Shown here: one piece after another, positions 24,433 through 64,000 of the stretch
Layout of the letters: each line of letters begins with the position of its first letter
Numbering within the stretch: the stretch's first letter is position 1
DNA from: Candidatus Nomurabacteria bacterium
Lineage (GTDB): Bacteria; Patescibacteriota; Minisyncoccia; Phycocordibacterales; UBA9973
DNA length: 64,000 bases
Assembly: GCA_026396015.1 (NCBI GenBank)
Contig: JAPLXP010000014.1
Span: 15,944 to 79,943, forward strand
Reading direction: 5' to 3'
Notes under the pieces: model-generated
Told to the model about the DNA's origin: nothing
The model's database searches: none
The model's input: the letters and a program-made list of their open reading frames with translations, nothing else
Made by a program: the position numbers and the translations under genes

Positions 24433-24523
24433 TTTTACCCTTTAAAATAAGGATATTTTCATTTTTATATATAAAAATAAGATAAACTCATACAGCCCTT
24501 CCAAACCAAAACCATACACAATA

Positions 24524-24557
24524 AAAATCTGCCTAGGTCCGACCTAGGCAGATTTTT
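24524..24557. repeat. REP-A palindrome copy 1 (aaaatctgcctaggtccgacctaggcagatttt)
   Basis: 14-bp perfect stem with tccga loop, overlapping the RAYT-A stop. Identical copy at 25257..25290. Variants at 24943..24967 and 39466..39490. Confidence 0.85.
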
Positions 24558-25233
24558 AAATACTGTAATTTTCAAAAAAATCAAACAATTCCCTCGTGTG
24601 ATTTACACGAATATGATCTGGTAATATTTGCCTATCTATTATTTTAGAATACTTTCTGCTGTCCACAAAGTAATCAAAGAAACTAGAGTACTTATATTTT
24701 TTCAAATAATCTATTGTTTTATTTTTATCGTTAATACCATTTATTTTCCAATCTTTTTGGATCAATTTTACAGGGTTCAAGTGAACATAAGAAAAAAGAT
24801 AGTTAAAATAATTCTCTTCACCCACATGATTAGATTTAAATTTTCCCTCAAATAAAGAGCCTGTGCGTCCATATTTTTTATTAAAATACATTGAGTACGA
24901 AGTAGAAACTTTACGAATAAATTCAGTTATAGGATTAAACTTTTCGCCTAGGTCCGACCTAGGCGAAATAAGAATAATATGAAAATGATTTGGCATAAGG
25001 ACCCAAGCTAAAACATTTACCAAAGTTTCCCCTCTTTCAAAATCAAATGAATCAATATTATTTCTAACAATTGAATTTCTAAAATTAAATTTCAGCTCTG
25101 AATTTGCAATATAGAGGAGCTTAGTAAAACGTTCATAATCTTCATCATCTAAAAATATCTGACTCTTTCCATTGCCACGATTGTAGATATGATAAAATTC
25201 GTTTTGCACTAAATTTGTTTTTCGCAATGACAT
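24556..25233 (-). CDS. REP-associated tyrosine transposase (RAYT, IS200/IS605 Y1 HUH family), copy A
   Basis: YHIYNRGN N-terminal motif, HUH motif LMPNHFHIIL, catalytic Tyr region YLFSYVHLNP. Bracketed on both sides by identical REP-A palindromes. Confidence 0.8.
   Translation of the reverse strand: MSLRKTNLVQNEFYHIYNRGNGKSQIFLDDEDYERFTKLLYIANSELKFNFRNSIVRNNIDSFDFERGETLVNVLAWVLMPNHFHIILISPRSDLGEKFNPITEFIRKVSTSYSMYFNKKYGRTGSLFEGKFKSNHVGEENYFNYLFSYVHLNPVKLIQKDWKINGINDKNKTIDYLKKYKYSSFFDYFVDSRKYSKIIDRQILPDHIRVNHTRELFDFFENYSI
24943..24967. repeat. REP-A copy embedded in-frame in the RAYT-A coding sequence
   Basis: ttcgcctaggtccgacctaggcgaa encodes SPRSDLGE just after the HUH motif. Confidence 0.8.
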
Positions 25234-25256
25234 ATTTATATTGTATCAAACAAATA

Positions 25257-25290
25257 AAATCTGCCTAGGTCCGACCTAGGCAGATTTTTT
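25257..25290. repeat. REP-A palindrome copy 2
   Basis: Same 33-mer as 24524..24557. It sits between the RAYT-A start and the stop of the 862-aa surface protein gene. Confidence 0.85.
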
Positions 25291-27877
25291 ATTGTTGTGG
25301 AGTAATTTCTGGGGATGGTGTTTGCGCAGGTGCTGGATTTACAATCACTCCCCCCGCAGGAGCTGGGTTTTCATCCACTACAAGAGGCGCCACAGGCTCT
25401 GGACTCACCACAACTGGAGCAGGAGCATTCACCACTACGCACTCCCCTGGTACTGTCTGCATCGCACCACTCACGACTTTCACACAGAATGGATCACCTG
25501 TCTCCTCATCGTAGATTGTAATACCTGTACGCTTTGCAGGACTACCTATGTGCAAAGTCTGCACAGTCAAATCTTTGATTGATGCCATAGTGCCTGACAC
25601 TTGAGTCACAACTCCACCAAAGAAATCAGACATCAGATTAGATACACCATGACTTCCAAGATTTGAATTCTCGAGAGCCTTCACACGCAAATCCATTGCA
25701 ACTATTTTTGAATTCTCTTCTTTTACAGATGCCATCAGTATTCCGTTTACAGATACTTGATCAATCATATTACCCACCATGAATGCAGGATTTACTTCAT
25801 CTGCGATATATCCAATACGAGTCTTTGCTAGCGGTGAATCTGATCCGTATCCATTTACTTCACGAATATATCTGAATGTATGCAATGGTGCATCTAGAAC
25901 CATTTGCAATGAGGCACTGTAGTCTGTGTAATCTGCTATATCTTGCTTTGTATCACGAGTAGATGTCTGTGCTCCTACCACGGTACCGGCTGTGTCGTTT
26001 GCATTACTTGGTGATGCTGTATTGATGCGAATGTTTCCTGCTGCATCTTGCCATACGTATCCAGCTGTACCAGCTTTACTTTGGAAGTTTATAGATCCAG
26101 CGCCAGTATTTGTAGCATTTGTATTGCGCCCTAGAGTAAACACTGGACCAGCCAAACCAGCACCTAGATCCGAAGAACCTATGTTTAAGGATCCAGTATT
26201 CGTCACATTAAACTTACTCACATAACTTCCACCTCCAGTACCAGCATCAATCAGATATTGAGCACCAGAACCCAAAGTTGTTTCCGTGCGATTGATCCAT
26301 AAATCTGTCGCTGCTGCTGTACCTGTCTGACTGAGATTTGGAGTTATTTTAAGAGTAGAATTATTACCTGAAGATTGTGTCTGGGAACCAGTACCAAGTG
26401 TCACATATGCAGCAGTGGTAGAAATAGATTGATTACCAAATGTCATTCCCAAATTGCTTGCTGCTCTAAATATAGTAGAAGTCATTCCATTTGGGGCATA
26501 CGCAGAACTAGATGTCACAAAAAATTGACTTGATCCATTTATTTGTAAATCGATAAGAGAGCCCGTATAACCCGTAGCTTCATTTACAGCTAAAGATGTT
26601 CCGCCTGCTTGACCTATAAATTTACCAGCGGTTGACCCATCGAATGCATTTCCTCCGATAGATAATGTGCCGTAAGCTGTAACTGCAGTAGGTGCTACTC
26701 CGATGGTCAATTTACTTGCTGGGGTGATTGTGCCGATACCCAACCTATGATTTGTAGAATCCCAATAGAATTGACCTCCAGCTGTAGTATCTTGGGAAAG
26801 CACCCCAGATGTACCAGCAAATAATATTGATCCGATAGTTGGAGTAAAAAATGTTGGAGCACCCGATCCACCAGACACTACAGCCTGACCACTAGTTCCA
26901 GTAGATGTATATGCATGTGCTGTACCTGTACCATATCCGATACCACCAGCTGTCGGAGTAGCAGATGAATTTGTACCTCCTTGAGCTATAGTCACAAGTG
27001 CATTATCTGTGAGGATAGTAGCAGAGATATTTGGAAGAGTGAAAGTCTTTGTCGAAGTAGTAGGACCTGAGAATGAAGTGAACGCATTACCTGTACCACC
27101 ATTTGTAGAACCTAAGGTTCCAGTCACAGTAGATGTACCGAGGGCAACTGTAAATCCAGTACCAGTAGAACCACTAGTGAGTGTGCCCACTGTAGCGATA
27201 TCTGTACCTACGAGCTTTGAAGCTGCGATACTACCAGCTAGGTCAGCATTCAAAACTGCACCTGTAAGCGATAACTTGGAATACGCTATTGAGCCAGCGA
27301 GGTCAGAATTTAAAATTGCACCAGAGAGTGAAAGCTTTGAATATCCGATAGACCCAGCGAGCATAGCACTAGTAACTGCACCAGAATTTATTGTCCAAGA
27401 TGCACCAGATGAAGCTACTGTTATGTCACCTTTGTTGCCATCAGTAACACCAGCCCCTCCACAAGCACCCCATGCAGGTGCACCTGATGAAGCAGAAGTA
27501 AGACACAATGTAGCACCTGCATTTGGAGCTAGCACACTAAGAGCTCCAGTTCCATTACCATATATAATTCCATTTGAAGTAAATGAACCAACTCCTGTAC
27601 CACCCTGGCCGACAGTCACTGCTGCATTAGTAGTCAGCACTGTGGCATTCGCATCTGGAAAAGTAAAAGTACGAGTAACAGTAGGACCTGTCACAGCAAA
27701 AACACCATCACCAACTTCTGACCACCCATGACCTGGATTTGGAGTAGTAGCAAACACAAGCTGAACAACAGAAAAAACTACTACAGAAAATAGCAGAGTA
27801 TAAGCAACATAGTGGAATGAAAATCGTGGTCGGATGGTGTGTAAGAATTTTTTAAATAATAATTTTAAATTAAACAT
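25289..27877 (-). CDS. large Gly/Thr/Ser/Ala-rich surface (tail-fibre-like) protein with C-terminal endosialidase-chaperone (peptidase S74-like) domain
   Basis: N-terminal signal/TM segment. Long G-x-G-T repeats and LAGSIAxSKLSL repeats. LGIGTITPASKLTIG fibre-like motif. C-terminal STRDTKQDIADYTDY...LHTFRYI resembles the intramolecular chaperone auto-processing domain. Pro-rich extreme C-terminus. Confidence 0.55.
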   Translation of the reverse strand: MFNLKLLFKKFLHTIRPRFSFHYVAYTLLFSVVVFSVVQLVFATTPNPGHGWSEVGDGVFAVTGPTVTRTFTFPDANATVLTTNAAVTVGQGGTGVGSFTSNGIIYGNGTGALSVLAPNAGATLCLTSASSGAPAWGACGGAGVTDGNKGDITVASSGASWTINSGAVTSAMLAGSIGYSKLSLSGAILNSDLAGSIAYSKLSLTGAVLNADLAGSIAASKLVGTDIATVGTLTSGSTGTGFTVALGTSTVTGTLGSTNGGTGNAFTSFSGPTTSTKTFTLPNISATILTDNALVTIAQGGTNSSATPTAGGIGYGTGTAHAYTSTGTSGQAVVSGGSGAPTFFTPTIGSILFAGTSGVLSQDTTAGGQFYWDSTNHRLGIGTITPASKLTIGVAPTAVTAYGTLSIGGNAFDGSTAGKFIGQAGGTSLAVNEATGYTGSLIDLQINGSSQFFVTSSSAYAPNGMTSTIFRAASNLGMTFGNQSISTTAAYVTLGTGSQTQSSGNNSTLKITPNLSQTGTAAATDLWINRTETTLGSGAQYLIDAGTGGGSYVSKFNVTNTGSLNIGSSDLGAGLAGPVFTLGRNTNATNTGAGSINFQSKAGTAGYVWQDAAGNIRINTASPSNANDTAGTVVGAQTSTRDTKQDIADYTDYSASLQMVLDAPLHTFRYIREVNGYGSDSPLAKTRIGYIADEVNPAFMVGNMIDQVSVNGILMASVKEENSKIVAMDLRVKALENSNLGSHGVSNLMSDFFGGVVTQVSGTMASIKDLTVQTLHIGSPAKRTGITIYDEETGDPFCVKVVSGAMQTVPGECVVVNAPAPVVVSPEPVAPLVVDENPAPAGGVIVNPAPAQTPSPEITPQQ

Positions 27878-27985
27878 AAATTACATTTATATTATATCAC
27901 GATAATATAAAAAAAGTACCACAAAATGATACTTTTTTTGAGAATAATGTGGATAACTTTTTTTATTTTATTTTTTTAAAAAATT

Positions 27986-29863
27986 TTATCGAATTATGTA
28001 GCCCAATCTAGAAATTTTTTCTGAAATATTGCCCATTATTTGATTTATCTCATCATCAGTGAGAGTTTTTTCATAAGATTGAAAAACTAATCGATATGCG
28101 TAAGAAATTTTTCCAACCTCGCCCGGTACATCTGAGGGTTTTACGAATTTATCTACTAGCTGTGGTTCACGAACGAGCAATTCTGTTCCAAATTCTTTGT
28201 AAATGTTTTTCAATTCATCTGATTCCACATTTTCAGGTACCCACACTGAAATATCGCGAGTCATAAATGGAAATGTTGACCATGACTTGAATAGAATTGA
28301 AGCGGAGTCAGAAGTGCTTTCAAAAATAGTCTGGCCGAGCTCCCCTTTTTCTCCTGCGAGGAGATCCGAGGACTTTTTTGAAAGTACTTCTGATGTAGCT
28401 ATAGTATAAATAAATTCATTTAAACTCGTCTCTTTTACTTCTTTTTTATTCGCAAAACATACATGAATTTCTTCTTTATCTCCAGAGAAAACTGTACCTA
28501 TTTCAAAAATTTTAACTTCATTTAGACCCAAGAATGGAGCATTTAATTTATTCAGATTAAAACTCTCTTTTAGGCCATCAATCAAATTCTTTCTCAAAAA
28601 ATTTTTATCAGAAGCAGAGGCTAATACTTCTATATCCCCTTTATTTGTAAAGCCATATGTCATCACCTCGCGATATCCATCACGAAGTAGAATTTCTTTT
28701 GCTTTCAAAATATTTTCATATACATCGTTCACTTTTGAGACAAAAGAAAGCTTTGGAATTGTCGGGATGACCTTGTCGTAACCTATCACACGTCCAATCT
28801 CTTCAGCCATGTCATTCATCGTCACGAGATCGCGACGAGCTAGTGGTATTGTGACAGTCCATTCCCCTTTTTCAAAGTCATTTGCATAACCAAAACTATA
28901 ATCATTCATAAATTTTTCAATCTGCTGATTTGAAATTTCCAAACCTAACATTTTTGAAATATATTCTGTCGTGAATTTCAGAGTTTTTTGAATTTCAGGA
29001 TTTGGGTATACATCTACGATGTCCTCAAATACTGCCTCCGGGAACATTTCAGATATTAATGCAGACAATTCCTTCATAGCAAAAGGGCAAGTCGAAGCTG
29101 AAAGATTATTCTCAAATCTTTTTGCTGAATCAGTCAGGATTCCTAGTCTGCGCGCAGTCTTGCGGACTGTAGCAGCATCAAAACTCGCAACTTCAAGTAA
29201 TATATCTGCAGTAGAGTCAGAAACTCCTGAATCAAATCCACCTTTGACTCCAGCGAGAGCTAAAGTTTTTTCTCCGTCAGTGATGACTAGATCATTTGAT
29301 TTTAATTTTGCGATGGTACCCTCTCTGCCTACCAATTTTAATTCTTCTCCTTCAATTGCATTGCGAACTACAATAGTTTCATTCGCAAATTTACTCAAAT
29401 CAAATGAATGAGTGGGATTTCCACAATTGTACATTACTAAATTTGTCGCATCTACAATATTATTTATCGAGCGTTGACCTATTGATTCTAGATGAGTGAC
29501 TACCCATTCTGGAGATGGACCAATCTTGATTCCACGTACAATACGCCCCATATAGCGATTACATCTATCTGTATCTAATGTAATTTTTAGATTTGTAGGT
29601 TTTGGTTCTGGTATCTTGTATACACGATCAGGGTCATTGAAATTCAGGCCCAGCTGTCCTGCGAGTTCGCGAGCCATACCACTATGTGATAGTAGATCTG
29701 GGGCACGATTCGGCAAGATATTCACGTCAAAAATAGTATCACCATTTGGTAATTTTTCTACACCATCCACCTCGGTCAGGTGGTATGTCAAAATATCAGC
29801 TATTTTATCAGCCTCGGGAATTTCTGGTATATACCATTTGAGCCAGTTGTAAGATATTTTCAT
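27986..29863 (-). CDS. pheT: phenylalanyl-tRNA synthetase beta subunit (reduced, 625 aa)
   Basis: MKISYNWLKWYIPE N-terminus, B3/B4 and B5 regions, C-terminal ferredoxin-fold anticodon-binding domain. Confidence 0.9.
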   Translation of the reverse strand: MKISYNWLKWYIPEIPEADKIADILTYHLTEVDGVEKLPNGDTIFDVNILPNRAPDLLSHSGMARELAGQLGLNFNDPDRVYKIPEPKPTNLKITLDTDRCNRYMGRIVRGIKIGPSPEWVVTHLESIGQRSINNIVDATNLVMYNCGNPTHSFDLSKFANETIVVRNAIEGEELKLVGREGTIAKLKSNDLVITDGEKTLALAGVKGGFDSGVSDSTADILLEVASFDAATVRKTARRLGILTDSAKRFENNLSASTCPFAMKELSALISEMFPEAVFEDIVDVYPNPEIQKTLKFTTEYISKMLGLEISNQQIEKFMNDYSFGYANDFEKGEWTVTIPLARRDLVTMNDMAEEIGRVIGYDKVIPTIPKLSFVSKVNDVYENILKAKEILLRDGYREVMTYGFTNKGDIEVLASASDKNFLRKNLIDGLKESFNLNKLNAPFLGLNEVKIFEIGTVFSGDKEEIHVCFANKKEVKETSLNEFIYTIATSEVLSKKSSDLLAGEKGELGQTIFESTSDSASILFKSWSTFPFMTRDISVWVPENVESDELKNIYKEFGTELLVREPQLVDKFVKPSDVPGEVGKISYAYRLVFQSYEKTLTDDEINQIMGNISEKISRLGYIIR

Positions 29864-29868
29864 ATATT

Positions 29869-30573
29869 TTAAAATTGATTAAGTCTCAAGTCTCCCTGGT
29901 AAAGAAGTCGTACATCTGGAATATTCCATTTGATCATAGCAATACGATCGAGTCCTCCTCCAAAAGCAAAACCTTGGACCTTTTCCGGATCAAGACCTGC
30001 ATTCTTCAGTACAGTCGGATGAATCATGCCACCCCCCATCATCTCTAGCCATTTACCATTGAACTTTGCATGCACTTCTACAGAAGGCTCGGTAAAAGGA
30101 AAGAAACTAGGACGGAATTCTATCTCCACATCAGGACCTAGAACTTTTTTATAGAATTCTACGAGCACACCCTTCATATGAGAAAGATTTATATTCTGAC
30201 CTATCATGAATCCATCAATCTGGTGGAATTGCATCTCATGAGTAGCGTCAGTCGATTCATTGCGGAAAACTTTACCAACAGAAATATACGCGCCCTCTGT
30301 CATATTTTCTTTTGCCATCTTTTCTAGGTTGCGAGCAGTAGTATTTGTAGCATGAGTACGGAGAACTGCATCAGGAGAGTTTTTGATATAAAAAGTATCC
30401 TGCATATCACGAGCAGGGTGATCCTTTGGCACATTTAGTGCGTCGAAGTTGTACCAAGTAGTCTCGAGCTCTGGAGCGAGAGATACCTCGAATCCAAGGC
30501 CAGTAAATAGATCGTAGGCCTGATTCTGTAGGATAGTTAGTGGGTGAAGTGACCCCTTTTCATATTCATTCAT
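29869..30573 (-). CDS. pheS: phenylalanyl-tRNA synthetase alpha subunit (catalytic core only, 234 aa)
   Basis: Class II motifs FRPSFFPFTEPSVEV and GGGMIHP. Lacks the N-terminal coiled coil. Confidence 0.9.
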   Translation of the reverse strand: MNEYEKGSLHPLTILQNQAYDLFTGLGFEVSLAPELETTWYNFDALNVPKDHPARDMQDTFYIKNSPDAVLRTHATNTTARNLEKMAKENMTEGAYISVGKVFRNESTDATHEMQFHQIDGFMIGQNINLSHMKGVLVEFYKKVLGPDVEIEFRPSFFPFTEPSVEVHAKFNGKWLEMMGGGMIHPTVLKNAGLDPEKVQGFAFGGGLDRIAMIKWNIPDVRLLYQGDLRLNQF

Positions 30574-30591
30574 ACGTTTAAATATAGCATT

Positions 30592-31027
30592 TTACCCTAA
30601 TTTTTCCAAAAGCTCTTTCTTCAATTTATACCCATCCCCCCACTTCAGCATACCTAAATAAGAATTCACGCTCTCTTCTTTAAAATTATTCTTTTTCAAA
30701 TTCCTAAACATTCTCTTCTTTGTCGCTGTTCGTAATACTCTATTATTAGCAATAATGTACCCAGCCTAGGAAATCAAGTCCTGATGCTAGAGTTTTAATA
30801 TATACTTTTTCTGGATGTAGTTGTAGTTTTAAATTTTTATTTAAAAAATCTGAAATTACAGGTAAAAAATTCTCAAGATATAATTTATCATCAGAAAGTA
30901 TCACAAAATCATCCGCATATCTCTCGTAGTATTTTACTTTTGATTCAGCGGAATCATGTCGCTTATCTATTCTGCATGAATACGAATCGTATATAAATTT
31001 CTTGTCGAAATATGGGTGTCGTTGTCA
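30592..31027 (-). pseudogene. reverse transcriptase remnant (DGR/retron-type RT motifs 5-7 plus C-terminal tail), N-terminally truncated and frameshifted
   Basis: Minus-strand translation gives ...KVKYYERYADDFVILSDDKLYLENFLPVISDFLNKNLKLQLHPEKVYIKTLASGLDFLGW then a stop. The next frame continues (G)YIIANNRVLRTATKKRMFRNLKKNNFKEESVNSYLGMLKWGDGYKLKKELLEKLG*. The YADD box, FLG(Y) motif 7 and the SYLG..K.G..YKL tail typical of DGR RTs are present. Motifs 1-4 are absent and no frame is open upstream. Confidence 0.65.
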
Positions 31028-31236
31028 AACTTGTTCACATTGAGCTTCAAGCAACCATCGTCATCAAAGTTGACATCAGCAACAAAGAAATTATAAGATA
31101 TCCCATCTATTCCACTGCATATTAAATCATAATAATGCTGTATTTTATTTTGAACCAAGAGTTCAAAGAATATCTTACCTACAAAATATTTTTTATTGGT
31201 TTCTACTATGATCACGCTTTGAGAAGATATCTCCAC
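30967..31236 (-). other. truncated paralogous fragment of the DGR target C-terminus carrying the template repeat (TR); track ORF of 89 aa
   Basis: Encodes ...NFFVADVNFDDDGCLKLNVNKFD, the TR version of the VR peptide FFVADVRFDDDGCLKLYVDGFD. The rest is not homologous to the target. Probably not an independent functional gene. Confidence 0.5.
31017..31092 (-). repeat. DGR template repeat (TR)
   Basis: 67-nt core identical to the VR except at 7 positions, plus 2 flank positions. At every mismatch the TR coding strand has A. TR codons AAC/AAT/AAC/AAG correspond to VR CGC/TAT/GAC/GGG. Confidence 0.8.
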
Positions 31237-31396
31237 TCAAATTCTGGATAATAACAAAAACATACCTTTTATCCTAAGTTTCAGTATAAAGATTAAGTAA
31301 TAGACCGAGGATATCAAAAGAATACGAGTTTAGTATACAAAAATCCCCCAGTACACGCAAAGTGTCTGAGGGATTAAGAAATTAAGGGTCTAAATT

Positions 31397-32077
31397 TTAA
31401 ATTACTGAGTGAACAAGCGCTGTAGCTGGGACAACAACACGAGACTGATTGCTCGCACACCAAACATCGATGTAGTCAAACCCGTCCACATAGAGCTTCA
31501 AGCAACCATCGTCATCAAAGCGGACATCAGCAACAAAGAAACTTTCGCCTTCCTTAAAAAGAAAGAATGTGGCATAGCCATTTGTACGAAGTTTATCTTT
31601 ATTTTTTTCACAGAAGTTTTTGATTTGCGCCTGGGTCATACAGAGTGCTTCTAAATCCTTATTGAAAGAACCGAAAATAGTCCTGTAATCGCCATCCTTG
31701 TGCATCTCAAATACTTTCATTTCGGATTTCTCCGTTTTAGGTTGAGTATTAATTAAATTCCAATCTTTTAAATTGGTACTCAAGTACCCTGTAAACAAGT
31801 CTCCTGCATAATGAAGTCCTGACTCTTTTGTACCTCCGCATTCATCAACAAAAATTTCTTCTTCACAATGCAACTCGGTAAGGTGGGATGTTTTTACAGG
31901 TTCAGTGGACTTTAATCCAAAAATCTTCATCCTATCTTTAAGACTCATTTTGTGAAAACCAATAAGACAATTTATGTAATCAGAGTTTTGTTTTCTGTAC
32001 GCTGACCATAAATTTTTGTCTACTTCTTTTTGTAGGCCTTCAATGTTTGAAGGATCTACGATGAATTTTTGTATCAT
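31397..32077 (-). CDS. DGR target protein (226 aa) with variable repeat near C-terminus
   Basis: C-terminal ...ESFFVADVRFDDDGCLKLYVDGFDY... contains the VR. Otherwise no recognised domain. Confidence 0.6.
   Translation of the reverse strand: MIQKFIVDPSNIEGLQKEVDKNLWSAYRKQNSDYINCLIGFHKMSLKDRMKIFGLKSTEPVKTSHLTELHCEEEIFVDECGGTKESGLHYAGDLFTGYLSTNLKDWNLINTQPKTEKSEMKVFEMHKDGDYRTIFGSFNKDLEALCMTQAQIKNFCEKNKDKLRTNGYATFFLFKEGESFFVADVRFDDDGCLKLYVDGFDYIDVWCASNQSRVVVPATALVHSVI
31475..31541 (-). repeat. DGR variable repeat (VR)
   Basis: See TR. The VR sits ~450 nt upstream of the TR on the + axis, inside the target gene's 3' region. Confidence 0.8.
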
Positions 32078-32227
32078 CTTTTTGTTTTTAAATAACTAGA
32101 TCGTTAGTTCACTAGTTCAGGAGTATTATATCACAAAATATGCCTGCAAGTCAAGCTTAAAAAGGCTATATTTTAAAGGGTTTTGTGTGGATATTGCAGG
32201 ATTTAATAGATTATGATACAGTATACG

Positions 32228-32392
32228 TACTAGTGGCTTCGGCCTCCGAGAAAGCTCCCGCAAGGGAGCTTTCGATTTTATACTTGCAGTCTATATAACA
32301 GTATGGTATTATAAAAATATTGAGAGGTTGCCTCTCTTGCTCGCAAGAGCCGATAGCCCCGCAAGGGGCTATTATAATTTATAAAGCTTACT
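32228..32392 (+). ncRNA. candidate structured small RNA: cluster of tetraloop-capped hairpins (1 UUCG, 3 GCAA, 1 UUGC)
   Basis: Hairpins ggcTTCGgcc (32235-44), gagaaagctcccGCAAgggagctttc (32248-74), gagaggTTGCcctctc (32322-36), gctcGCAAgagc (32339-50) and atagccccGCAAggggctat (32353-72). Possible promoter ttgcag-17-tacagt at ~32195-32223. GNRA loops appear only in + orientation. No overlapping protein gene except a spurious 62-aa track ORF. Confidence 0.35.
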
Positions 32393-32764
32393 AAAGTATT
32401 CTTGTATTTTAGAATATTCTTCGTCTGAAAGAATATATTTCCTCTCTGTAAGTCTCCTCTTGTCAAAACTACGTATCTGATACACTAGTGCTGTATGCAA
32501 AATACCGTCATCTGTTTTTATAATACAAGAATATTTTCTATTTTTAACTTTTGAGGTAAGTGGTATACCAATAAAACTTTCACTACCTTCGGCATTTATC
32601 ACAAGAACTGGTCTTGTATAATCATCCCCTTTACCATACACCTCACTACCCACATTCATCCCAATACTACACCACCAAATTTCTTTTTCTTGTGGATGAT
32701 TAAATGTTTCATTTTGATCAATCTTTATTTTCTTTTTATTCCACTTATCAAAATCTTTATCCAT
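32372..32764 (-). CDS. MazF/PemK/EndoA-family endoribonuclease toxin, no adjacent antitoxin gene
   Basis: VGSEVYGKGDDYTRPVLVINAEG...IGIPLTSK and ALVYQIRSFDKRRLTERKYILSDEEY align with B. subtilis EndoA (VGSEQGGVRPVLVIQND...; LLEQIRTIDKQRLTDK...). It has a ~35-aa N-terminal extension. Confidence 0.75.
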   Translation of the reverse strand: MDKDFDKWNKKKIKIDQNETFNHPQEKEIWWCSIGMNVGSEVYGKGDDYTRPVLVINAEGSESFIGIPLTSKVKNRKYSCIIKTDDGILHTALVYQIRSFDKRRLTERKYILSDEEYSKIQEYFSKLYKL

Positions 32765-32796
32765 ATTTAAATTATATCACTACTAACCCCTGAGTT

Positions 32797-35778
32797 CTAT
32801 GCTGATTTATATATTCTAGCCCTCGCGCAGTTTGGACATACGGAATCCCTGCCGTAGGATTTGAAATTACATGGACGGTTTATCCACACACCAGTTTTTA
32901 AATCTCTATCATACTCAGTAATATCACGGACCAATAGATCAATCTCCTCATTTGTGATACTCGTCTTGTAAATACCATTCTTGTCTCCCTTTTTGGCCTC
33001 TAGGAATTCCAATTGAGATTCTGATACTCGATCATTGTTATTCGCACCGTGAATAAGGTACGAGTACATTGCGAGTTGTCGCATATAGCTACTCATACTC
33101 TCGTTTTCGCCCCGTTTTTCAATTTCTGATTTTGTTTTTACGCTACCTGTCTTGAAATCCGTCACTCGAAAAGTATTTTTTTCTATCTCCTCTGTCAGGT
33201 CCACCTTTCCATAGAAAAGTAAGCTTGGAAAGCGAGAATCTCGATACGATAGCGGTCGCTCTGTCATATAATTCTTTATATTGGGCAGTCTTTCCTTTAC
33301 CCAGACAGATACTATTCCGACAGCTTCTTTTTGTAATCTTTTAACCATTGATTCTTCATAAATATTTTGCTTGTGTATCTGATCGAGGATTATATCTTCA
33401 AGCAAATCTCCGTTCTTCTTCAATACTTGCTCGATCGTACCGTGAACCACATTACCAAAGACTAGACTCTCAGAAACTACGTCCGGCAAGCGCAATAGAT
33501 TCCTAAAATACCACTTCCATGGGCATTCAAAAAAGTTGTTCAGCATCGTCACCGATACCTTTGTCTTTTGGTATTCCTCAGCGACCATATCGGTCAGATC
33601 TTTCGTTGAAAAATCTACCTCTGCATGAGGTACAGCAGTGACATATGATTTTGGGTCCCTGCTCAGAATTTGTTCTTCTACTTGATTGAAATTTTTCTTT
33701 ATAAATAGGTCTTCTGGCAGTTCCGCGATGATATGTGACAATTCCTGATCGCCACCTGTATATGAGTATCTAGAATATGAAAAAGTACAGAATCGCTTTG
33801 CTCGAGTCAGTGCTACATAGAGCTGCTTTTTCACCACTTCAGCATCTTTTTCTTCTATTTTATTTTGTACATCTTCTGGGAGTGTGAATGCCTGCTTTTT
33901 GCCATGCATCAATGTCTTTTCATCCATATGAGCCACCCAGACGAAATCAAATTCCAATCCTTTTGAGGAGTGAAGTGTCAGAACCTTTACACCTTTGTCG
34001 CCATAGAATACGTCTAGTGGTAGATCCTCGCCATAAGATTTGAGTCGGTCGATAAAGTCGATAAATCTTTTCAGTGTGAATTTCTGATGCTCCCGCTCGC
34101 TCTTTTCCCTCTCCCCTTGCGCTAGGTGCAGTACTGTACGCACCACCTCCACGCGACGAATCAGATCATCGTGATTCTCTGCTGTATCTAGTAGTAGACT
34201 CTCGCCCACATATTGGACTAATTCGTACACATCACGAGTATTGGATTCCTCAATATAGGATTTCAATTTATCACCCCAGGAATTCACTGGATCAATACCT
34301 GTAAATAAATCTTTTTTGCCGCCACCGAGATCCTCTACGGATAGCTTGTAAGTATTCACACTCTGCAAAAACTTATGTGCCGAGAGTGGTGGTATCTTAT
34401 TTATCGGATCAAACAAAGATTCAGAGATAGAGATATTGTCATATGGATTTAATACTATTCGAAGTGCCCGAATCAGAGTATCTGCCTCGGGTACACCAAA
34501 GAGTGTCAGTATGCCTGATGAAGCCACAGGTATACCGCGATCTCGGAGTATCTGCACAGCGTTTTTGACTTGATAATTTTTTGGCACAAGAATCGTGCAT
34601 TCATCAGGACTCACACCATCTGCCACCTTCGCCTCTATCTCCATAGCAGCAGCAATGATCTCGTCACGAGGATATTCGCATTCATAGAGCTGTAGTTTAT
34701 GCATCTCTCCATGATTACTCTTGAGTTTTTCCAGTGTCATCGAACTTCGCAGTAGTGTGTCTGCACTATCGAGAATCGCCTGTGTAGAACGATAATTCTC
34801 CACCAATGTGATCAACTTTGCTTTACCAAAAAGCGTCTTAAAACTCTCAAAATATTCGATAGACGCACCCCCAAAACCATAGATGAGCTGTCGGTCATCA
34901 CCCACAACGAATATATTTGGCAATTCTGTATCGTGCCAGATAGCACGAAGTATCGCATTCTGCGTAGCACTACTATCCTGATGCTCGTCTACGAGTGCAT
35001 ACAGATATCGCTCGCGAATAGTCGCCTGTGCATCATCGGAATTTACCAGAATATGCCATGCGTATTTGAGCACATCATCATAATCACAGAGACCTCGCTC
35101 CTCTTTTAATTTCTCGTATTCACGATAGAAAATTACGACTTCTTTTGTCCTCTCGAGTCCATCGATTTTCTTTTCTACTTCTTTTTTAAGTTGTCCTTTG
35201 CTCTCGCCACGACTAGAAATACTATCCGGGTCATTCTTGATCCGATCAATCTCGAAATTTATAGATGCCAAAAACTCTTCAGGCTTTATATTTTCTCTTT
35301 TCAATAATGAAATCAGACTTTTGATATCTCGGAAAAACATGCCTGAATTACCTCGTGGACGAATGTAGACCCAGCTACCATTCTCTAGAATCTCATCCAC
35401 GAGGGCGATATTGCTCGTCTCATCTAGTATCACCGGTGGCTTTTGCATGTCGAGAACCTGGTGGAATTCCTCGAGTATATTCATAGCAAAACTATGAAAA
35501 GTAGAAATCTTGATCTGTGTAGCTGGAGGGCCAATATATTTCAATAAACGCTTACGCATCTCTTGCACCCCAGAATTAGTAAAAGTTAGACATAAAATTT
35601 CGTTTGGTTGTGTTTGGTTTGAACTATTTAAAATATAAGCAATACGCAGTGACAATACCTGAGTTTTTCCAGTACCGGGACCCGCCACTACCATCACTGG
35701 ACCGTCGATAGTATCTACGGCCAATTTTTGCTCTTTATTTAGCTTTTTATATGCAGAATTATATAAGTCTTGATTCAT
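32797..35778 (-). CDS. UvrD/AddA-like SF1 helicase fused to C-terminal RecB-family PD-(D/E)xK nuclease with Cas4/AddB-like Fe-S cysteines
   Basis: N-terminal LNKEQKLAVDT...VVAGPGTGKTQVL Walker A and UvrD motifs. C-terminal ...FECPWKWYF ... DFKTG...K nuclease core. Terminal RPC-x10-C-x2-C cysteine cluster. No AddB/RecC partner is adjacent. Confidence 0.8.
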   Translation of the reverse strand: MNQDLYNSAYKKLNKEQKLAVDTIDGPVMVVAGPGTGKTQVLSLRIAYILNSSNQTQPNEILCLTFTNSGVQEMRKRLLKYIGPPATQIKISTFHSFAMNILEEFHQVLDMQKPPVILDETSNIALVDEILENGSWVYIRPRGNSGMFFRDIKSLISLLKRENIKPEEFLASINFEIDRIKNDPDSISSRGESKGQLKKEVEKKIDGLERTKEVVIFYREYEKLKEERGLCDYDDVLKYAWHILVNSDDAQATIRERYLYALVDEHQDSSATQNAILRAIWHDTELPNIFVVGDDRQLIYGFGGASIEYFESFKTLFGKAKLITLVENYRSTQAILDSADTLLRSSMTLEKLKSNHGEMHKLQLYECEYPRDEIIAAAMEIEAKVADGVSPDECTILVPKNYQVKNAVQILRDRGIPVASSGILTLFGVPEADTLIRALRIVLNPYDNISISESLFDPINKIPPLSAHKFLQSVNTYKLSVEDLGGGKKDLFTGIDPVNSWGDKLKSYIEESNTRDVYELVQYVGESLLLDTAENHDDLIRRVEVVRTVLHLAQGEREKSEREHQKFTLKRFIDFIDRLKSYGEDLPLDVFYGDKGVKVLTLHSSKGLEFDFVWVAHMDEKTLMHGKKQAFTLPEDVQNKIEEKDAEVVKKQLYVALTRAKRFCTFSYSRYSYTGGDQELSHIIAELPEDLFIKKNFNQVEEQILSRDPKSYVTAVPHAEVDFSTKDLTDMVAEEYQKTKVSVTMLNNFFECPWKWYFRNLLRLPDVVSESLVFGNVVHGTIEQVLKKNGDLLEDIILDQIHKQNIYEESMVKRLQKEAVGIVSVWVKERLPNIKNYMTERPLSYRDSRFPSLLFYGKVDLTEEIEKNTFRVTDFKTGSVKTKSEIEKRGENESMSSYMRQLAMYSYLIHGANNNDRVSESQLEFLEAKKGDKNGIYKTSITNEEIDLLVRDITEYDRDLKTGVWINRPCNFKSYGRDSVCPNCARARIYKSA

Positions 35779-35860
35779 AAACCCATTATACCCCGAGGGT
35801 CAGGAAAATAAAAAAACCACTATAAAATTATATTTTATAGTGGTTAAATACTTTCTTTCT

Positions 35861-36211
35861 CTAATCTTTAACAATTTCTTTAACCTTATCAATTAAATGA
35901 TTGTGTGATTCAAAATTGAAAATTCCAGGACCATCTGGTTTGATGGGTGAAAGTGTCGAAGCTAAAAAAGCTTTGGATTCAGAATTCAATTGCTCAACAA
36001 CAACATGAGGAGCGGACCCTGGGTAGCTAAAATTTGCATAATGCAAATAGAAGTAATCTTCATGAATATGATTTTCAAGATCATCATACTCAATAAATAC
36101 CAATACCATGGATGGCAAGTGTTTTTCAAACGTTTTATTTAAAAGCAAAACATCAACACTACCTCCTTCTAAGCTCTCTAGGAGCACAACTAACTTTTTC
36201 TTCTTATTCAT
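35861..36211 (-). CDS. hypothetical protein
   Basis: 116-aa ORF with coding-like composition. No assignable domain. Confidence 0.4.
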   Translation of the reverse strand: MNKKKKLVVLLESLEGGSVDVLLLNKTFEKHLPSMVLVFIEYDDLENHIHEDYFYLHYANFSYPGSAPHVVVEQLNSESKAFLASTLSPIKPDGPGIFNFESHNHLIDKVKEIVKD

Positions 36212-36302
36212 AATAAAATCATATATTTGTGTATATTATAGCATAAATCATACGCATTTGTCAAATCACAAAAAGTGTTGCTCTGTATGATATAATCCTC
36301 CA

Positions 36303-38042
36303 ATGTCTATACTTTTTACATATTTAAAGCATTATTGGAAGCTACTATTATTAGCTCTAGTTCTCGCTACTATCAATCAAGTCTTCTCACTTCTTGACCC
36401 CCTCATATTCCGTCATGTGATCGATGGGTATGCCACAAAATTTGATCAATATACATTCGCAGAATTCGCGCGTGGAGTAGGATACCTATTGCTATTGGCA
36501 GTTGGTGCAGCATTTGTATCTCGTGTAGCCAAGAATTTCCAGGATTACTATGTGAATACCATCACTCAGCGTATCGGCGCAAAAATGTATGCTGATGGGA
36601 TATCGCATTCACTATCTCTTCCTTATCAGCAATTCGAGGACGAACGCAGTGGCGAGACACTAGGTAAAATACAGAAGGTTCGTACAGATATTGAAAAATT
36701 GATAGCATCCATGATAAATGTGATCTTCGTATCACTCGTAGGATTCGTCTTTGTCATTATCTACGCATTAAAAGTCTACTGGGTGATCGCACCACTGTAT
36801 ATACTCGCGATACCATTGATCGGTGGAGTCAGCTATGTATTGAGCAAGAAGATTAAAAAAGTTCAGAAAACTATCGTAGCAGAGACTGCCGCACTAGCAG
36901 GCACTACGACAGAATCCCTCCGCAATATTGAGCTCGTAAAGAGTCTAGGCCTAGCCGAGCAAGAAATAGGAAGACTGAACAATACGACAGGTAAAATACT
37001 AGAACTGGAGCTTAAAAAAGTGAAATACCTACGAAGTCTGTCATTTGTCCAAGGTACGATTATAAACTTTGTCCGTACTGCTATCCTATTTATAATGCTG
37101 TATTTGATTTTTGCTCAGAAGATTACATTTGGAGAATTCTTTTCACTATGGATCTACTCATTCTTCCTCTTTGGGCCCCTACAGGAACTTGGAAATATTA
37201 TTGGTACATATCGTGAGAGTGAAGCATCGTTGGAAAACTTTAAAAAGATCCTCGATAGTAAACCAGAAGAGACACCAGAGAATCCAAAACATATCGGAGA
37301 TATAAAATCACTATCATTCAAAGAAATAAAATTCAAACACAAGATGGCAAGTGTCGAAGCTCTGAAGAATGTTTCTTTTGAAGTAAAGCAGGGTGAGACA
37401 ATAGCATTCGTAGGACCATCTGGAGCAGGCAAGACTACACTCGTAAAGCTCCTCGTAGGCCTCTACAAGCCCGCAGGCGGAGAGATTTCTTACAACGAGA
37501 TACAGAGTGCAGATGTAGATCTAAATGAGCTACGTAGTCAAATAGGATTCGTCACTCAGGATACCCAATTATTCGCTGGAACGATAAGAGAAAACTTATT
37601 ATTCGTGAATCCGGGTGCTACAGACGAGATGTGTCTAGACGCATTAAAGAAATCTGCTTGTGATGGACTACTCGCTCGTGCAGAAAAAGGTCTTGATACA
37701 GTTATCGGTGAAAACGGTGTAAAAGTCTCTGGTGGTGAGAAGCAACGTCTATCTATCGCCCGCGCACTATTACGTAAACCAAAGTTATTGATATTCGACG
37801 AGGCGACAAGCTCGCTCGACTCTCTGACAGAGGAAGAAATATCAAAGACAATCCAATCTGTCAGTGAATCAAAAAATCACATCACCGTATTGATCGCGCA
37901 CCGCCTATCGACAATCATGCATGCAGACCGCATCTATGTATTGGAAAAAGGAAGTGTCACAGAGAGTGGTAGTCATACAGAGCTACTCTCACAGAGCGGA
38001 CTATATGCAGCTATGTGGAGACAACAAATCGGAGAGAATTAG
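36303..38042 (+). CDS. ABC transporter, fused permease/ATP-binding protein (MsbA/lipid exporter-like)
   Basis: Six predicted TM helices, then Walker A GPSGAGKTT, signature LSGGEKQRLSIARAL and Walker B LIFDEATSSLD. Confidence 0.9.
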   Translation: MSILFTYLKHYWKLLLLALVLATINQVFSLLDPLIFRHVIDGYATKFDQYTFAEFARGVGYLLLLAVGAAFVSRVAKNFQDYYVNTITQRIGAKMYADGISHSLSLPYQQFEDERSGETLGKIQKVRTDIEKLIASMINVIFVSLVGFVFVIIYALKVYWVIAPLYILAIPLIGGVSYVLSKKIKKVQKTIVAETAALAGTTTESLRNIELVKSLGLAEQEIGRLNNTTGKILELELKKVKYLRSLSFVQGTIINFVRTAILFIMLYLIFAQKITFGEFFSLWIYSFFLFGPLQELGNIIGTYRESEASLENFKKILDSKPEETPENPKHIGDIKSLSFKEIKFKHKMASVEALKNVSFEVKQGETIAFVGPSGAGKTTLVKLLVGLYKPAGGEISYNEIQSADVDLNELRSQIGFVTQDTQLFAGTIRENLLFVNPGATDEMCLDALKKSACDGLLARAEKGLDTVIGENGVKVSGGEKQRLSIARALLRKPKLLIFDEATSSLDSLTEEEISKTIQSVSESKNHITVLIAHRLSTIMHADRIYVLEKGSVTESGSHTELLSQSGLYAAMWRQQIGEN

Positions 38043-38045
38043 AAA

Positions 38046-38076
38046 TAAAAAGCCCCGCGGCATATGCCGCGGGGCT
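38046..38076. terminator. bidirectional GC-rich terminator hairpin
   Basis: aaaaagccccgcggcatatgccgcggggcttttg between the convergent ABC transporter and murI genes. Confidence 0.8.
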
Positions 38077-38083
38077 TTTGTAT

Positions 38084-38875
38084 TTATAAATATTTTATTT
38101 CAAAATCATCCCCATACCAATCTTGTCCATATTTTTGAAAAATAGGATTTTCTCCTGTGATATAGAATATGAGCGATCCGTCTAAAGCCAATTTATTATT
38201 AAAATTTTGATTTTCTTTTATGTATTTTTCAAGGAATGGTGGAGTTATCTCTTCTTGAAGAATCCAATTTGAGACATTTGGAAAAATATTTTTAAATTCT
38301 GACACAGCGATACCATAGTGCGTACATCCGAGCACTACAGAATCCACACCAGCAGGTATGACTTCTCTATTCTGATCTAGATATGCAGACACATCCCCTC
38401 CTTTTTCTATGATAGAGGCGAGCTCTGGCAATACGAATTCATGAGTTTCAATATTCTTTTCTTCGAGAGATTCTTTATAAAAATGTGAATCCACAGTCCG
38501 GTGTGTAGCAAAAACCATCACACCGTTTGAATCTGAGATTGATTCTACTGTAGGATGTGCGATGCCGAATAGTAATCTGTCTGGATAATTTTCTCTTACC
38601 CATTCTTTCAACTCTGGATATATGGCTGTACTAGTAGTATTGCAAGCGAGCAATACTACTACACAATTCTGCTCGCCATACAGGAATGCCAAAGCGGTAG
38701 TAGTAAAAACAAACAAATCATTTTTTGATTTATTCCCGTATGGCACATTCTTTTGATCACCATAGAATACGTAATTGTATTCAGGGAGTAATTCTCTGAT
38801 GTGCTTCAATATCCATAGTCCACCTAGGCCTGAATCAAATACTCCAATATTTCCTTTTGTATTTTCATTATTCAT
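38084..38875 (-). CDS. murI: glutamate racemase
   Basis: VFDSGLGGLWILKHIRELLP and VLLACNTTSTAI catalytic Cys motifs. Confidence 0.88.
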   Translation of the reverse strand: MNNENTKGNIGVFDSGLGGLWILKHIRELLPEYNYVFYGDQKNVPYGNKSKNDLFVFTTTALAFLYGEQNCVVVLLACNTTSTAIYPELKEWVRENYPDRLLFGIAHPTVESISDSNGVMVFATHRTVDSHFYKESLEEKNIETHEFVLPELASIIEKGGDVSAYLDQNREVIPAGVDSVVLGCTHYGIAVSEFKNIFPNVSNWILQEEITPPFLEKYIKENQNFNNKLALDGSLIFYITGENPIFQKYGQDWYGDDFEIKYL

Positions 38876-39579
38876 TAAATTACAATCAATTCTTTTGGTG
38901 ACTTTGTAAGGATAGTGCTACCCTTTTTGGTAACCAGGATAGTATCCTCTATACGAATACCCAATTTATTTTTTATATATACACCTGGCTCGACTGTGAT
39001 GACCATATTATCGTCGAGAATTGGTTTTGTGATTTTAAAATAAATTCGTGGATTTTCATGAATGAGTTTCCCTACTCCATGACCTGTCATATGGATAAAA
39101 TATTTAGCATATCTACCGAGTGCCTTTCTGCATACTTCGTCTACTGTGAACGCATACACACCACTTTTAACCTCACCAATTCCCGCTAACTCACTCTGTA
39201 AAACTAGATCATAAATTTTCTTTTGTTCAATAGTTGGAACGCCGACAAATATCGTGCGAGTCATATCTGAGCAATAGCCATTTACCTTTACCCCAAGATC
39301 AATAATCACAAAACCAGATAATTTTTTATCGGTCGGCTGTGGGTGAATATCATTGCCTGCATTACGGCCTGATGTGACGATAGGTGGAAAGCTCGGTCTT
39401 AAACCTCTTTTCTTTATCTCAAATAAAATAAAATCTCGCAATTCCACTTCGGTAATTTTATGAGTCTTGCCTAGGTCGGACCTAGGCAAGAATTTTAAGA
39501 TATTTTTGAAAATAGCATCAGTCTCGCGGCAAGCCTTCTTGATATTTTCAATCTCTTCTTTTGTCTTTATTTGTGCCAT
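38875..39579 (-). CDS. M24-family metallopeptidase (Xaa-Pro/methionine aminopeptidase catalytic domain only) carrying an in-frame REP-A insertion
   Basis: IVTSGRNAGNDIHP...IIDLGVKVNGYCSDMTRT...HMTGHGVGKLIHENP...VEPGVYI pita-bread motifs. The N-terminal segment KFLPRSDLGKTHK is encoded by the REP-A palindrome. Confidence 0.8.
   Translation of the reverse strand: MAQIKTKEEIENIKKACRETDAIFKNILKFLPRSDLGKTHKITEVELRDFILFEIKKRGLRPSFPPIVTSGRNAGNDIHPQPTDKKLSGFVIIDLGVKVNGYCSDMTRTIFVGVPTIEQKKIYDLVLQSELAGIGEVKSGVYAFTVDEVCRKALGRYAKYFIHMTGHGVGKLIHENPRIYFKITKPILDDNMVITVEPGVYIKNKLGIRIEDTILVTKKGSTILTKSPKELIVI
39466..39490. repeat. REP-A copy (inverted orientation) inside the M24 peptidase CDS
   Basis: cttgcctaggtcggacctaggcaag. 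Same palindrome family as the RAYT-A flanks. In-frame, encoding LPRSDLGK. Confidence 0.8.
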
Positions 39580-54216: not shown

Positions 54217-54277
54217 AGTGTAGCAAGAACAGTGTAGCAAGAACGGTTCTTGCTACACTGAACGGTTCTTGCTACAC
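54217..54277. repeat. REP-B doublet: (gtgtagcaagaac)x2 then (gttcttgctacac)x2
   Basis: Two direct plus two inverted copies of the GTAG-initiated 12-13-mer can form a long nested hairpin. Same family as the copies around RAYT-B at 63371-63409 and 63589-63610. Confidence 0.8.
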
Positions 54278-54359
54278 TTGGGTATTTTTCTTTTAGTTGA
54301 ACTCTTTGTTCTGATGTGAAGTCGGAACAAAGGGACCCGACAGCAAGGCCTATTCTTTT

Positions 54360-55039: not shown

Positions 55040-58005
<2,966 letters not shown>

Positions 58006-63320: not shown

Positions 63321-63370
63321 ATTTTAATCTTCATCTATACCTTTATCATACATCTTTTTGTACGGCATTG

Positions 63371-63409
63371 TATAGCAAGAACTGTATAGCAAGAACAGTT
63401 CTTGCTATA
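63371..63409. repeat. REP-B copies (tatagcaagaac x2 + inverted gttcttgctata) overlapping the RAYT-B stop
   Basis: Same GTAG-core palindrome family as 54217..54277. Confidence 0.8.
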
Positions 63410-64000
63410 GGGTTTTAATGAAATAATTCTCAACAAATTCTTTAAAAGATTGCTGATTTTGGAAATAATCTGGAAATGCAGTCTTATTCAAAATATTTCC
63501 CTCTATCCTACCCTGCCCAACATAGTCAAGATAACTAGAATATCTATATGAATCAAGGAATTTTTTCATTTCATTTTGACTATTCCCCTGTAGCAAGAAC
63601 AGTTCTTGCTTATGGTTTTCACTATTATTCCATCCAGAAAATTCAATATCTAGCGGATTTATGTGAATATATCCAAACAATTGCCTCATATAATTATCAT
63701 CTGTTTTTATACATTTTGATTTAAATGGCCCACCAAACAGAGCCCCTTGTCTTTGGTATTTAATGTTAAAAAACATTGAATACCCTACTCCGAGCTTTCT
63801 CATAAACTTAGTGATTCCTCCATCTACTTCTTGTCGGACTAAAATATGAAAATGATTGGTCATTAGACACCAAGCTCCAATAGAAACGAGAGGTTCTCCT
63901 TTATCTAAAATCATAATTTCATCAAAACTCTTATGAGAATGATTAATCAAATTATCTAACCTTGGAGTTTTTTCACTACTAGAATTTGAAATATATAAAA
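63405..64000 (-). CDS. REP-associated tyrosine transposase (RAYT) copy B, N-terminus beyond window end
   Basis: HUH motif LMTNHFHILV and catalytic Tyr region LFGYIHINPL. The reading frame stays open to the window edge. An internal REP-B copy at 63589..63610 encodes HKQELFLLQ. Confidence 0.75.
   Translation of the reverse strand, partial: LYISNSSSEKTPRLDNLINHSHKSFDEIMILDKGEPLVSIGAWCLMTNHFHILVRQEVDGGITKFMRKLGVGYSMFFNIKYQRQGALFGGPFKSKCIKTDDNYMRQLFGYIHINPLDIEFSGWNNSENHKQELFLLQGNSQNEMKKFLDSYRYSSYLDYVGQGRIEGNILNKTAFPDYFQNQQSFKEFVENYFIKTL

Follow-up and report, generated by a model that had tools for sequence, protein, structure and literature searches.

How do short, perfect DNA palindromes come to stand in frame inside protein-coding genes, including the genes of transposases associated with such palindromes? 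This question is raised by a 64,000-nt stretch of a low-GC Patescibacteria genome (Candidatus Nomurabacteria bacterium, contig JAPLXP010000014.1), hereafter the window. It contains two different genes resembling those of REP-associated tyrosine transposases (RAYT-A and RAYT-B), each flanked by its own type of repetitive extragenic palindrome (REP-A and REP-B). Further copies of these palindromes lie within RAYT-A, within RAYT-B and within a gene for an M24 peptidase (Table 1). RAYTs are enzymes of the HUH/Y1 type, and REPs serve them as single-strand DNA substrates. The explanation we favour, with a probability of roughly 60%, is that the palindromes are the REP hairpins of these RAYTs and that their distribution reflects copying, a filter acting through reading frame and protein loop, and the re-copying of old copies.

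The core of REP-A is GCCTAGGTC[C/G]GACCTAGGC. A search of the whole window, allowing up to three mismatches, located it at exactly four sites (24531, 24946, 25263 and 39469), and 100 shuffles gave a chance expectation of 0. Two copies flank RAYT-A, one lies inside it and one inside the M24 gene. A chance origin of the REP-A and REP-B matches was rejected, as the shuffles predict none. Two of the three frames through REP-A contain TAG; the remaining one is free of stops, with the centre base as the last base of a Ser codon. Whichever way round it lies, an intragenic copy that survives must consequently read PRSDLG, and this forced reading is why the copies in RAYT-A and the M24 gene have that peptide in common. 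The initial annotation had correctly translated both of these copies (the one in M24 being inverted) as well as the REP-B copy in RAYT-B (HKQELFLLQ), and had correctly noted that REP-A reads PRSDLG both ways. Its suggestion of selection for a translatable palindrome is unneeded, since only the stop-free frame can survive in a gene and since the copy in RAYT-B required mutations in its arm.

The flanking REP-A copies are predicted to fold at -24.7 kcal/mol (24522-24558) and -23.2 kcal/mol (25256-25288). As had been anticipated, the in-gene copies are potential hairpins at the RNA level too, with predicted energies of -18.7 kcal/mol in RAYT-A, -19.5 in M24 and -10.3 in RAYT-B; shuffled sequences folded as well in 0/200, 0/200 and 5/200 cases, respectively. 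All three host open reading frames (ORFs) remain open. Scans of the window for perfect and one-mismatch palindromes returned no in-frame REP copies beyond these three, and the window totals are four REP-A sites, three REP-B sites and a single copy of a third type, REP-C.

Table 1. Genes and palindromes of the window (positions count from the first letter of the 64,000-nt stretch).
Feature	Position	Strand	Details
RAYT-A, divergent REP-associated Y1 (HUH) transposase-like gene	24556..25233	(-)	ORF, 225 aa
REP-A copy directly 3' of RAYT-A stop codon	24522..24558	.	perfect palindrome 18+1+18
In-gene REP-A copy, RAYT-A	24942..24968	(-)	TTTCGCCTAGGTCcGACCTAGGCGAAA, perfect 13+1+13, encodes SPRSDLGE
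REP-A copy directly 5' of RAYT-A start codon	25256..25288	.	perfect palindrome 16+1+16
Single-domain M24 (Xaa-Pro) peptidase gene	38875..39579	(-)	ORF, 234 aa; Pfam PF00557 E 5e-53
In-gene REP-A copy, M24	39465..39491	(-)	TCTTGCCTAGGTCgGACCTAGGCAAGA, perfect 13+1+13, encodes LPRSDLGK
Nested REP-B	54218..54278	.	full copy 54231-54259 between arms 54218-54230 and 54265-54278 of another
REP-B at RAYT-B 3' end	63370..63409	.	half copy (left arm) 63370-63382 and full copy 63385-63409
RAYT-B, second, different RAYT-like gene	63405..64000	(-)	5' end beyond window; full length 235 aa (P0241)
Lineage-specific RAYT-B insertion, 30 nt	63588..63617	(-)	encodes NHKQELFLLQ; holds REP-B copy

The products of both transposase-like genes are 100% identical to NCBI entries named 'MAG: transposase [Candidatus Nomurabacteria bacterium]' (P0121 for RAYT-A, P0241 for RAYT-B). 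They are 39% identical to each other, and each occurs once in the window. Against Pfam Y1_Tnp (PF01797, curated cut-off 23 bits) RAYT-A scores 22.2 and RAYT-B 23.6, and against NCBIfam REP_Tyr_transpos (NF047646, cut-off 80) they score 46.9 and 30.6. A sequence search of PDB with RAYT-A gave no match and a profile search only a weak one, to 4er8 (E 0.45). The AlphaFold2 (AF2) model of RAYT-A has as its best fold match in PDB 4er8_A, the TnpA-REP structure (E 7.3e-6), followed by the TnpA structures of IS608 and ISDra2. These borderline family matches, together with the fold match to 4er8, suggest a RAYT-like character for both genes. The subfamily is a divergent one, and JGI has named some of its members RayT.

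The HUH motif of RAYT-A is H83/H85, within an NHFH at residues 82-85 that is invariant in the protein alignment of homologues, and the REP-A-encoded segment occupies S90-E97, four residues past it. In the AF2 model this segment falls in a loop (residues 90-100) after the HUH strand, where the predicted confidence (pLDDT) is below 50 at 95-97. By a weak profile alignment to 4er8, the loop corresponds to residues 66-73 of E. coli TnpA-REP and maps just N-terminal to a helix whose residues R78 and K82 contact hairpin bases in that enzyme (PMC3479197). Judging from this alignment, the REP-encoded peptide may take part in hairpin recognition.

Is the copy inside RAYT-A a recent arrival, as the initial annotation proposed for the in-gene copies at large? 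For M24 and RAYT-B the reading as real insertions stands, their inserts being missing from most close homologues. The RAYT-A copy, however, is old. S[P/H]RSDL[G/W]E is present at this spot in nearly all RAYT-A homologues, and among those of 60-79% identity S90, R92, D94 and L95 are each at least 90% conserved. The annotation had further held that the resemblance would prove coincidental if orthologues with no REP nearby carried the same peptide. The peptide is indeed conserved in RAYT-A homologues, and in a formal sense this refuting condition applies, but the resemblance is no coincidence, because these homologues carry the DNA palindrome too and match their own flanking REPs.

This correspondence was followed through 81 loci, namely the window and 80 related loci in GTDB genomes. 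A perfect palindrome occurs 28-50 nt past the LMPNHFH motif in 47 of the 81. Of these 47, 38 have a flank copy approximately 280 nt upstream, and 36 have one 430-500 nt downstream. Comparison over 25 nt gives an identity of 0.90 between the in-gene copy and the flanks of its own locus, as against 0.53 with the flanks of other loci. Between loci the palindromes vary widely (for example CCCCTAGGTC.GACCTAGGGG, CCCATAGGTC.GACCTATGGG, CCACAAGTC.GACTTGTGG, TGCGGAAGCaagGCTTCCGCA, GCCGGTAACC.GGTTACCGGC and CCCCGACACC.GGTGTCGGGG), and so do the encoded loop peptides, which include PRSDLG, HRSDLW, HKSDLW, AEARLPQ, PAGNPVTG, PKPGLG and PTPGVG. In one locus (L026) the palindrome fills the loop with a net length gain of zero. 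More distant relatives (HFHLLIKEKTENGISKFMQK), RAYT-B included, have the loop with no palindrome, which indicates that the ancestral RAYT loop was plain. The idea that the in-gene copy always has one orientation with respect to its flanks was rejected, as the 3-nt hairpin loops AAG and CTT are found in both arrangements.

Some members of the family depart from this arrangement. In L008, L046 and L034 the 3' flanking REP does not belong to the type of the in-gene and 5' copies (for L008, CCCCTAGGCaagGCCTAGGGG as against CCTAGGAC.GTCCTAGG), which looks like REP turnover in progress. L047 holds a second in-gene copy of its own REP, approximately 256 nt past the HUH motif. In several homologues (P0122, P0232 and P0268) the reading frame runs into the 3' flanking REP, giving REP-encoded C-termini (HRSDLCKK, HRSDLWD and ARTVLAIG).

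The close match between in-gene and flanking copies might also be read from the inside out, with the in-gene sequence as the master from which flanking and dispersed REPs were exported, and with translation keeping one frame free of stops. Within-locus identity does span 25 nt including the foot of the stem (e.g. TTCCCC...GGGGAA), three loci (L015, L024 and L025) have an in-gene copy with no flank copy detected, and the in-gene copy is physically nearest to the site of protein synthesis. Yet the flanks do not depend on any such master in L001, L022 and L028, where they are perfect and the in-gene copy has decayed; RAYT-B-type genes have flanking REPs and no in-gene copies; and insert-free relatives show the ancestral loop without a palindrome. 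We regard this origin as quite unlikely.

What is being conserved inside RAYT-A is DNA rather than peptide. Six loci with protein identities of 65-75% all have [CCT/CAT] AGG TCN GAC CTA [GGG/TGG] as the codons of the palindrome, with synonymous sites invariant except at the hairpin centre, and the conserved residues adjoining it use varied codons. The probability of this codon set from codon usage alone is 1.3e-4, and it retains an AGG codon that is rare in this genome. Of the 120 closest proteins, 76 combine H with W or C, 24 combine P with G and 5 are discordant (100/105 concordant); these counts come from phylogenetically related sequences and are not independent events. The pairing can be understood only as C:G versus A:T base pairs between codons 1 and 6. 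Covariation counts on the in-gene hairpins themselves were ascertained on palindromes and hence were not used as evidence of selection.

These observations bear directly on the notion that the proteins need PRSDLG and that the palindrome is a by-product or a coincidence. The near invariance of the peptide in the closest RAYT-A homologues would accord with it. Family-wide, however, the peptide changes completely and the palindrome persists, matching non-coding flanks; synonymous positions are fixed; and the P/G and H/W pairing is sensible only as base pairing. Coincidence also conflicts with the shuffles, in which zero matches are expected. Peptide-level selection was therefore rejected on the synonymous-site and covariation evidence, and we find the notion scarcely credible.

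Constraint on DNA is equally what might be expected of a selected cis-regulatory site, that is, an autoregulatory operator through which the transposase, or an RNA or single-strand DNA hairpin of approximately -19 kcal/mol, throttles the gene; the M24 copy may then put M24 under the same control. Perfect palindromes that hold their position among homologues of 50-79% identity, frozen synonymous sites and the retained rare AGG would all agree with this, as would the predicted stability of the hairpins in AT-rich mRNAs and the way in which the in-gene copy tracks the flanking REPs, presumably the binding targets of the protein. An operator is less readily reconciled with approximately ten loci in which the ORF is intact and the in-gene palindrome has decayed, with the lack of an in-gene copy in most of the RAYT-B subfamily, with a 3-nt loop found in either orientation, or with the variation in both loop length and the position of the palindrome within the loop. 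We consider it unlikely on balance, but a functional role of the in-gene copy, as self-operator or mRNA hairpin, is a serious rival to the copying and filtering of RAYT hairpins.

The M24 peptidase, which has homologues in PDB, offers a view of REP-A in a gene with a housekeeping role. Its REP-A copy encodes L31-K38 and matches the core of the RAYT-A REP at 19/19 positions. Among homologues of 81-87% identity, protein differences are almost confined to the loop that holds the insert, and gene order is alike in all related loci whose DNA was compared (methyltransferase, M24, Asp/Glu racemase). A metagenome scan for relatives of M24 yielded distant ones only (at most 59% identity). The insert is missing in P0004, P0005, P0009 (KFLKKNKNVTE) and P0013 (229-230 aa), as it is in each listed homologue of 66% identity or less, and in the DNA alignment a variable centre stands between well-conserved flanks. 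The AF2 model (pLDDT 89) has helix 7-33 end within the REP-encoded residues 32-37, which continue into loop 34-43; pLDDT is below 50 at 35-38. Alignment and predicted structure together identify the copy as a genuine in-frame insertion of 6-8 extra codons in a loop between two helices. The earlier suggestion that the inserts are accommodated as short loops agrees with both AF2 models, and with the alignment of the RAYT-B site to a loop.

The same loop holds other palindromes in related genomes. The insertion site of the window, with TCTTGCCTAGGTCcGACCTAGGCAAGA, is occupied in P0002 and P0003 by TCCACAGGTCcGACCTGTGGA, and AAGAC(T/A)CAT comes next in all three. Two base pairs, both fully compensated, separate the two palindromes (CCTAGG..CCTAGG versus CACAGG..CCTGTG); P0002 and P0003 have theirs in identical form although nearby synonymous sites differ between them. 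Over approximately 27 nt, this CACAGG variant is the same as the REPs that flank the RAYT-A homologue in L001. In P0006, P0010 and P0011 other perfect palindromes are situated about five codons downstream in the loop, with outer stems CAGTCC...GGACTG as in the RAYT REP of L018; P0008 and P0012 have imperfect palindromes. Around M24 in the related loci, over as much as 10 kb to either side where contigs were long enough, no other REP-like palindromes were found, which makes independent random hits on the same loop very unlikely. Either the M24 loop has been targeted, or an old copy in it has been rewritten repeatedly.

One may ask whether the palindromes in M24 have anything to do with RAYTs, or instead mark a hot spot of quasi-palindromes arising by template switching or a structured element of the mRNA. 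That different palindromes, some of them imperfect (P0008 and P0012), occur at the loop in related genomes, with no other REP-like palindrome around the gene, would suit such an independent origin. It would have to accommodate, however, the complete match of the window copy to the RAYT-A REP core, the agreement of the P0002/P0003 variant with the REPs of L001, and the stems that P0006, P0010 and P0011 share with the REP of L018. Moreover, a second housekeeping gene carries the REP of an adjoining RAYT: the ABC exporter next to the RAYT of L045 has an in-frame REP doublet (1833-1878) in the linker between its membrane and ATPase domains. The doublet consists of two inverted copies of the REP of that locus's RAYT (TGCGGAAGCcttGCTTCCGC and its inverse), encodes VAEALLPLISGSKASAT and corresponds to a 14-aa gap in the comparison with the window's ABC exporter. 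We judge an origin independent of RAYTs very unlikely.

The M24 peptidase consists of the catalytic domain alone. It aligns from residues ~125-148 onwards with PDB prolidases of 348-377 residues, and the N-terminal domain usual in prolidases is missing from it and from all close relatives found.

The second pair, REP-B and RAYT-B, shows a copy whose survival depended on mutation. REP-B (TAGCAAGAAC.GTTCTTGCTA; longer form GTAGCAAGAAC.GTTCTTGCTAC) occurs in the window at 54235, 63387 and 63591, and has the canonical GTAG at the foot of its hairpin (GTAGCAAGAAC...). The copy in RAYT-B is a perfect 9+1+9 palindrome (63592-63610) that encodes HKQELFLLQ and retains GTAG intact on the + strand (63590-63593). 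At the 5' end of the coding strand its arm has changed from CTGTAGC to CATAAGC, which removed the in-frame TAG; the copy survives because the mutated arm reads CAT AAG, where a perfect REP-B would read CTG TAG. NHKQELFLLQ is missing in 22 distant homologues and in most of 27 close ones (69-78% identity), so that, by alignment, the copy is a real insertion of 10 extra codons. Its site aligns to a loop in the RAYT-A model. A different peptide, ARTVLA, appears in the same loop of P0254 and P0265 and at the C-terminus of P0268. Going by protein sequence only, it looks like the translation of another REP-type palindrome; if so, RAYT genes would have been hit repeatedly by REPs at permissive loops.

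REP-B also adjoins genes. At the 3' end of RAYT-B the full copy (63385-63409) provides the last Leu codon and the TAG stop. The nested REP-B has a repeat of GAACG at its junction and occupies an intergenic position directly downstream of the 5S and 23S rRNA genes (minus strand, ~54800-58000). This nesting suggests that hairpins attract further copies.

Two other palindromes of the window were noted. REP-C (CCATAAGTCcGACTTATGG, 49924-49942) adjoins the stop codon of an ORF at 49943-50716(-); no cognate RAYT for it was found in the window, and the same palindrome is a RAYT-linked REP in L041 and L032. Between the convergent racemase and ABC-exporter genes, at 38048-38079, is a 32-nt perfect GC-rich palindrome (AAAAGCCCCGCGGCAT/ATGCCGCGGGGCTTTT) which is no copy of REP-A, REP-B or REP-C. 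It is identical in L162 (11488-11519), has compensated substitutions in L165 (3894-3925), and is probably a bidirectional terminator.

The reading we favour would bring the three in-gene copies under one process. Each RAYT would occasionally copy its hairpin to new sites, mainly near its own gene, with a bias toward nearby DNA and toward existing hairpins. In the gene-dense genomes of Patescibacteria many landing sites would be coding, and a copy would survive at such a site only if the frame of the gene coincided with the stop-free frame of the palindrome (one of three for REP-A), if the net change in length were a multiple of three, and if the site were a solvent-exposed loop. The copies in M24 and RAYT-B would be survivors of this filter. 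The RAYT-A copy would represent an old event of this kind that reached fixation close to the base of a large RAYT subfamily of Paceibacteria and has since kept in register with the REPs on either side of its gene. Re-copying onto the existing hairpin, gene conversion and hairpin-templated correction are likely homogenising routes, and such maintenance would explain why the in-gene copy changes in concert with its flanks while its peptide drifts freely. The M24 loop would, similarly, be a persistent landing site for REPs, updated as the REP type of the genome changes.

Several points weigh against this account. Firstly, the GTAG tag needed by E. coli TnpA-REP (PMC3479197) is missing from REP-A (GCCTAGG...) and from most REP types of the RAYT-A subfamily. 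Secondly, REP-A is very sparse, with four copies in 64 kb of which one is away from RAYT-A, and a 'repetitive, dispersed' character is unproven for the genome. Thirdly, in approximately ten loci with an extended loop, L001, L022 and L028 among them, the in-gene copy has decayed beside perfect flanking REPs; as the ORFs there are intact, the in-gene copy is evidently dispensable and re-copying not universal. Fourthly, a rough neighbour-joining tree of M24, weak in that it uses ~220 residues of ~15% divergence, does not group by insert state. A single ancestral insertion followed by simple vertical descent is unsupported by this tree, and recurrent insertion or turnover, loss or recombination must be added. 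Finally, the part of the RAYT as agent, through mobility and cleavage, and the route by which at least three copies are kept identical are things that we infer, and selection for function could instead be what has preserved a perfect in-gene palindrome while the proteins diverged by 50-75%.

Known systems offer partial parallels. Proteobacterial REP/RAYT systems (REPtrons, such as that of E. coli TnpA-REP, 4er8, and the Pseudomonas REPINs) likewise have a Y1 HUH gene once per REP type, with its own short GC-rich palindrome to either side, and several RAYT/REP pairs per genome; the fold match to 4er8 and the canonical GTAG at the hairpin foot of REP-B are further likenesses. In contrast, the family scores here fall below curated cut-offs (46.9 versus 80 and 22.2 versus 23 for RAYT-A), the REPs form perfect palindromes that occur very sparsely, and singly instead of as REPIN doublets, REP-A has no GTAG, and a cognate REP copy stands inside the RAYT ORF, co-varying with the flanks. 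IS200/IS605 elements (e.g. IS608) also bracket a Y1 HUH gene with hairpins that its enzyme recognises on single-strand DNA, and the RAYT-A fold matches 2a6o and 2vjv. Here, by contrast, nothing points to several identical copies of the genes, one and the same palindrome forms both the left and the right hairpin, hairpins are also found on their own at other sites, and the ORF contains a third one.

The initial annotation described REPs as usually intergenic, which is true as a rule; in-frame intragenic examples have nevertheless been documented, both as GTAG/CGTC REPs (Di Nocera et al. 2013) and as the palindromic elements of Rickettsia (RPEs) (PMC3733652; reviewed in PMC10969869). The elements described here resemble these in being palindromes in frame within genes of a reduced genome, adding a short peptide and leaving the ORF open, in host genes unrelated to each other and with inserts missing from orthologues elsewhere. 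As with RPEs, the segment is absent from orthologues in M24 and RAYT-B, whereas in RAYT-A it is conserved, and the predicted loops of M24 (34-43) and RAYT-A (90-100) place it at the surface, off the active site. RPEs, however, are ~100-150 bp long with a family-specific peptide, compared with 19-30 nt (6-10 codons) here; and the present elements go with a transposase gene that can be identified, which is itself an insertion site, conserved family-wide, and the M24 site holds different palindromes in different genomes.

In-frame palindromic insertion is, then, a known phenomenon, extended here to the candidate phyla radiation (CPR), for which our literature search on REPs found nothing relevant. 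Two aspects look new, judged by the literature searched: a whole RAYT subfamily keeps in its own reading frame a cognate REP that is clearly constrained as DNA and co-varies with the flanks, and at least one housekeeping copy occurs at the same site in relatives with compensated changes in step with a RAYT-linked REP variant. No mention of a REP inside a RAYT ORF was found in the RAYT literature searched, coverage of which was incomplete, so that this is absence of evidence only.

A bolder possibility, which we hold to be rather unlikely, is that the gene of this RAYT subfamily permanently houses the hairpin its product recognises, coupling enzyme to target as a self-operator or master copy, and that REPs in housekeeping genes are actively rewritten when specificity shifts. 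Were this so, it would amount to a homogenising, RAYT-driven editing of coding sequence. If the two aspects that look new are upheld, they would provide a natural system for the study of RAYT/REP co-evolution. They would allow tests of whether RAYTs still act on their hairpins, as well as study of the remodelling of protein loops by small hairpins where genomes are extremely reduced.

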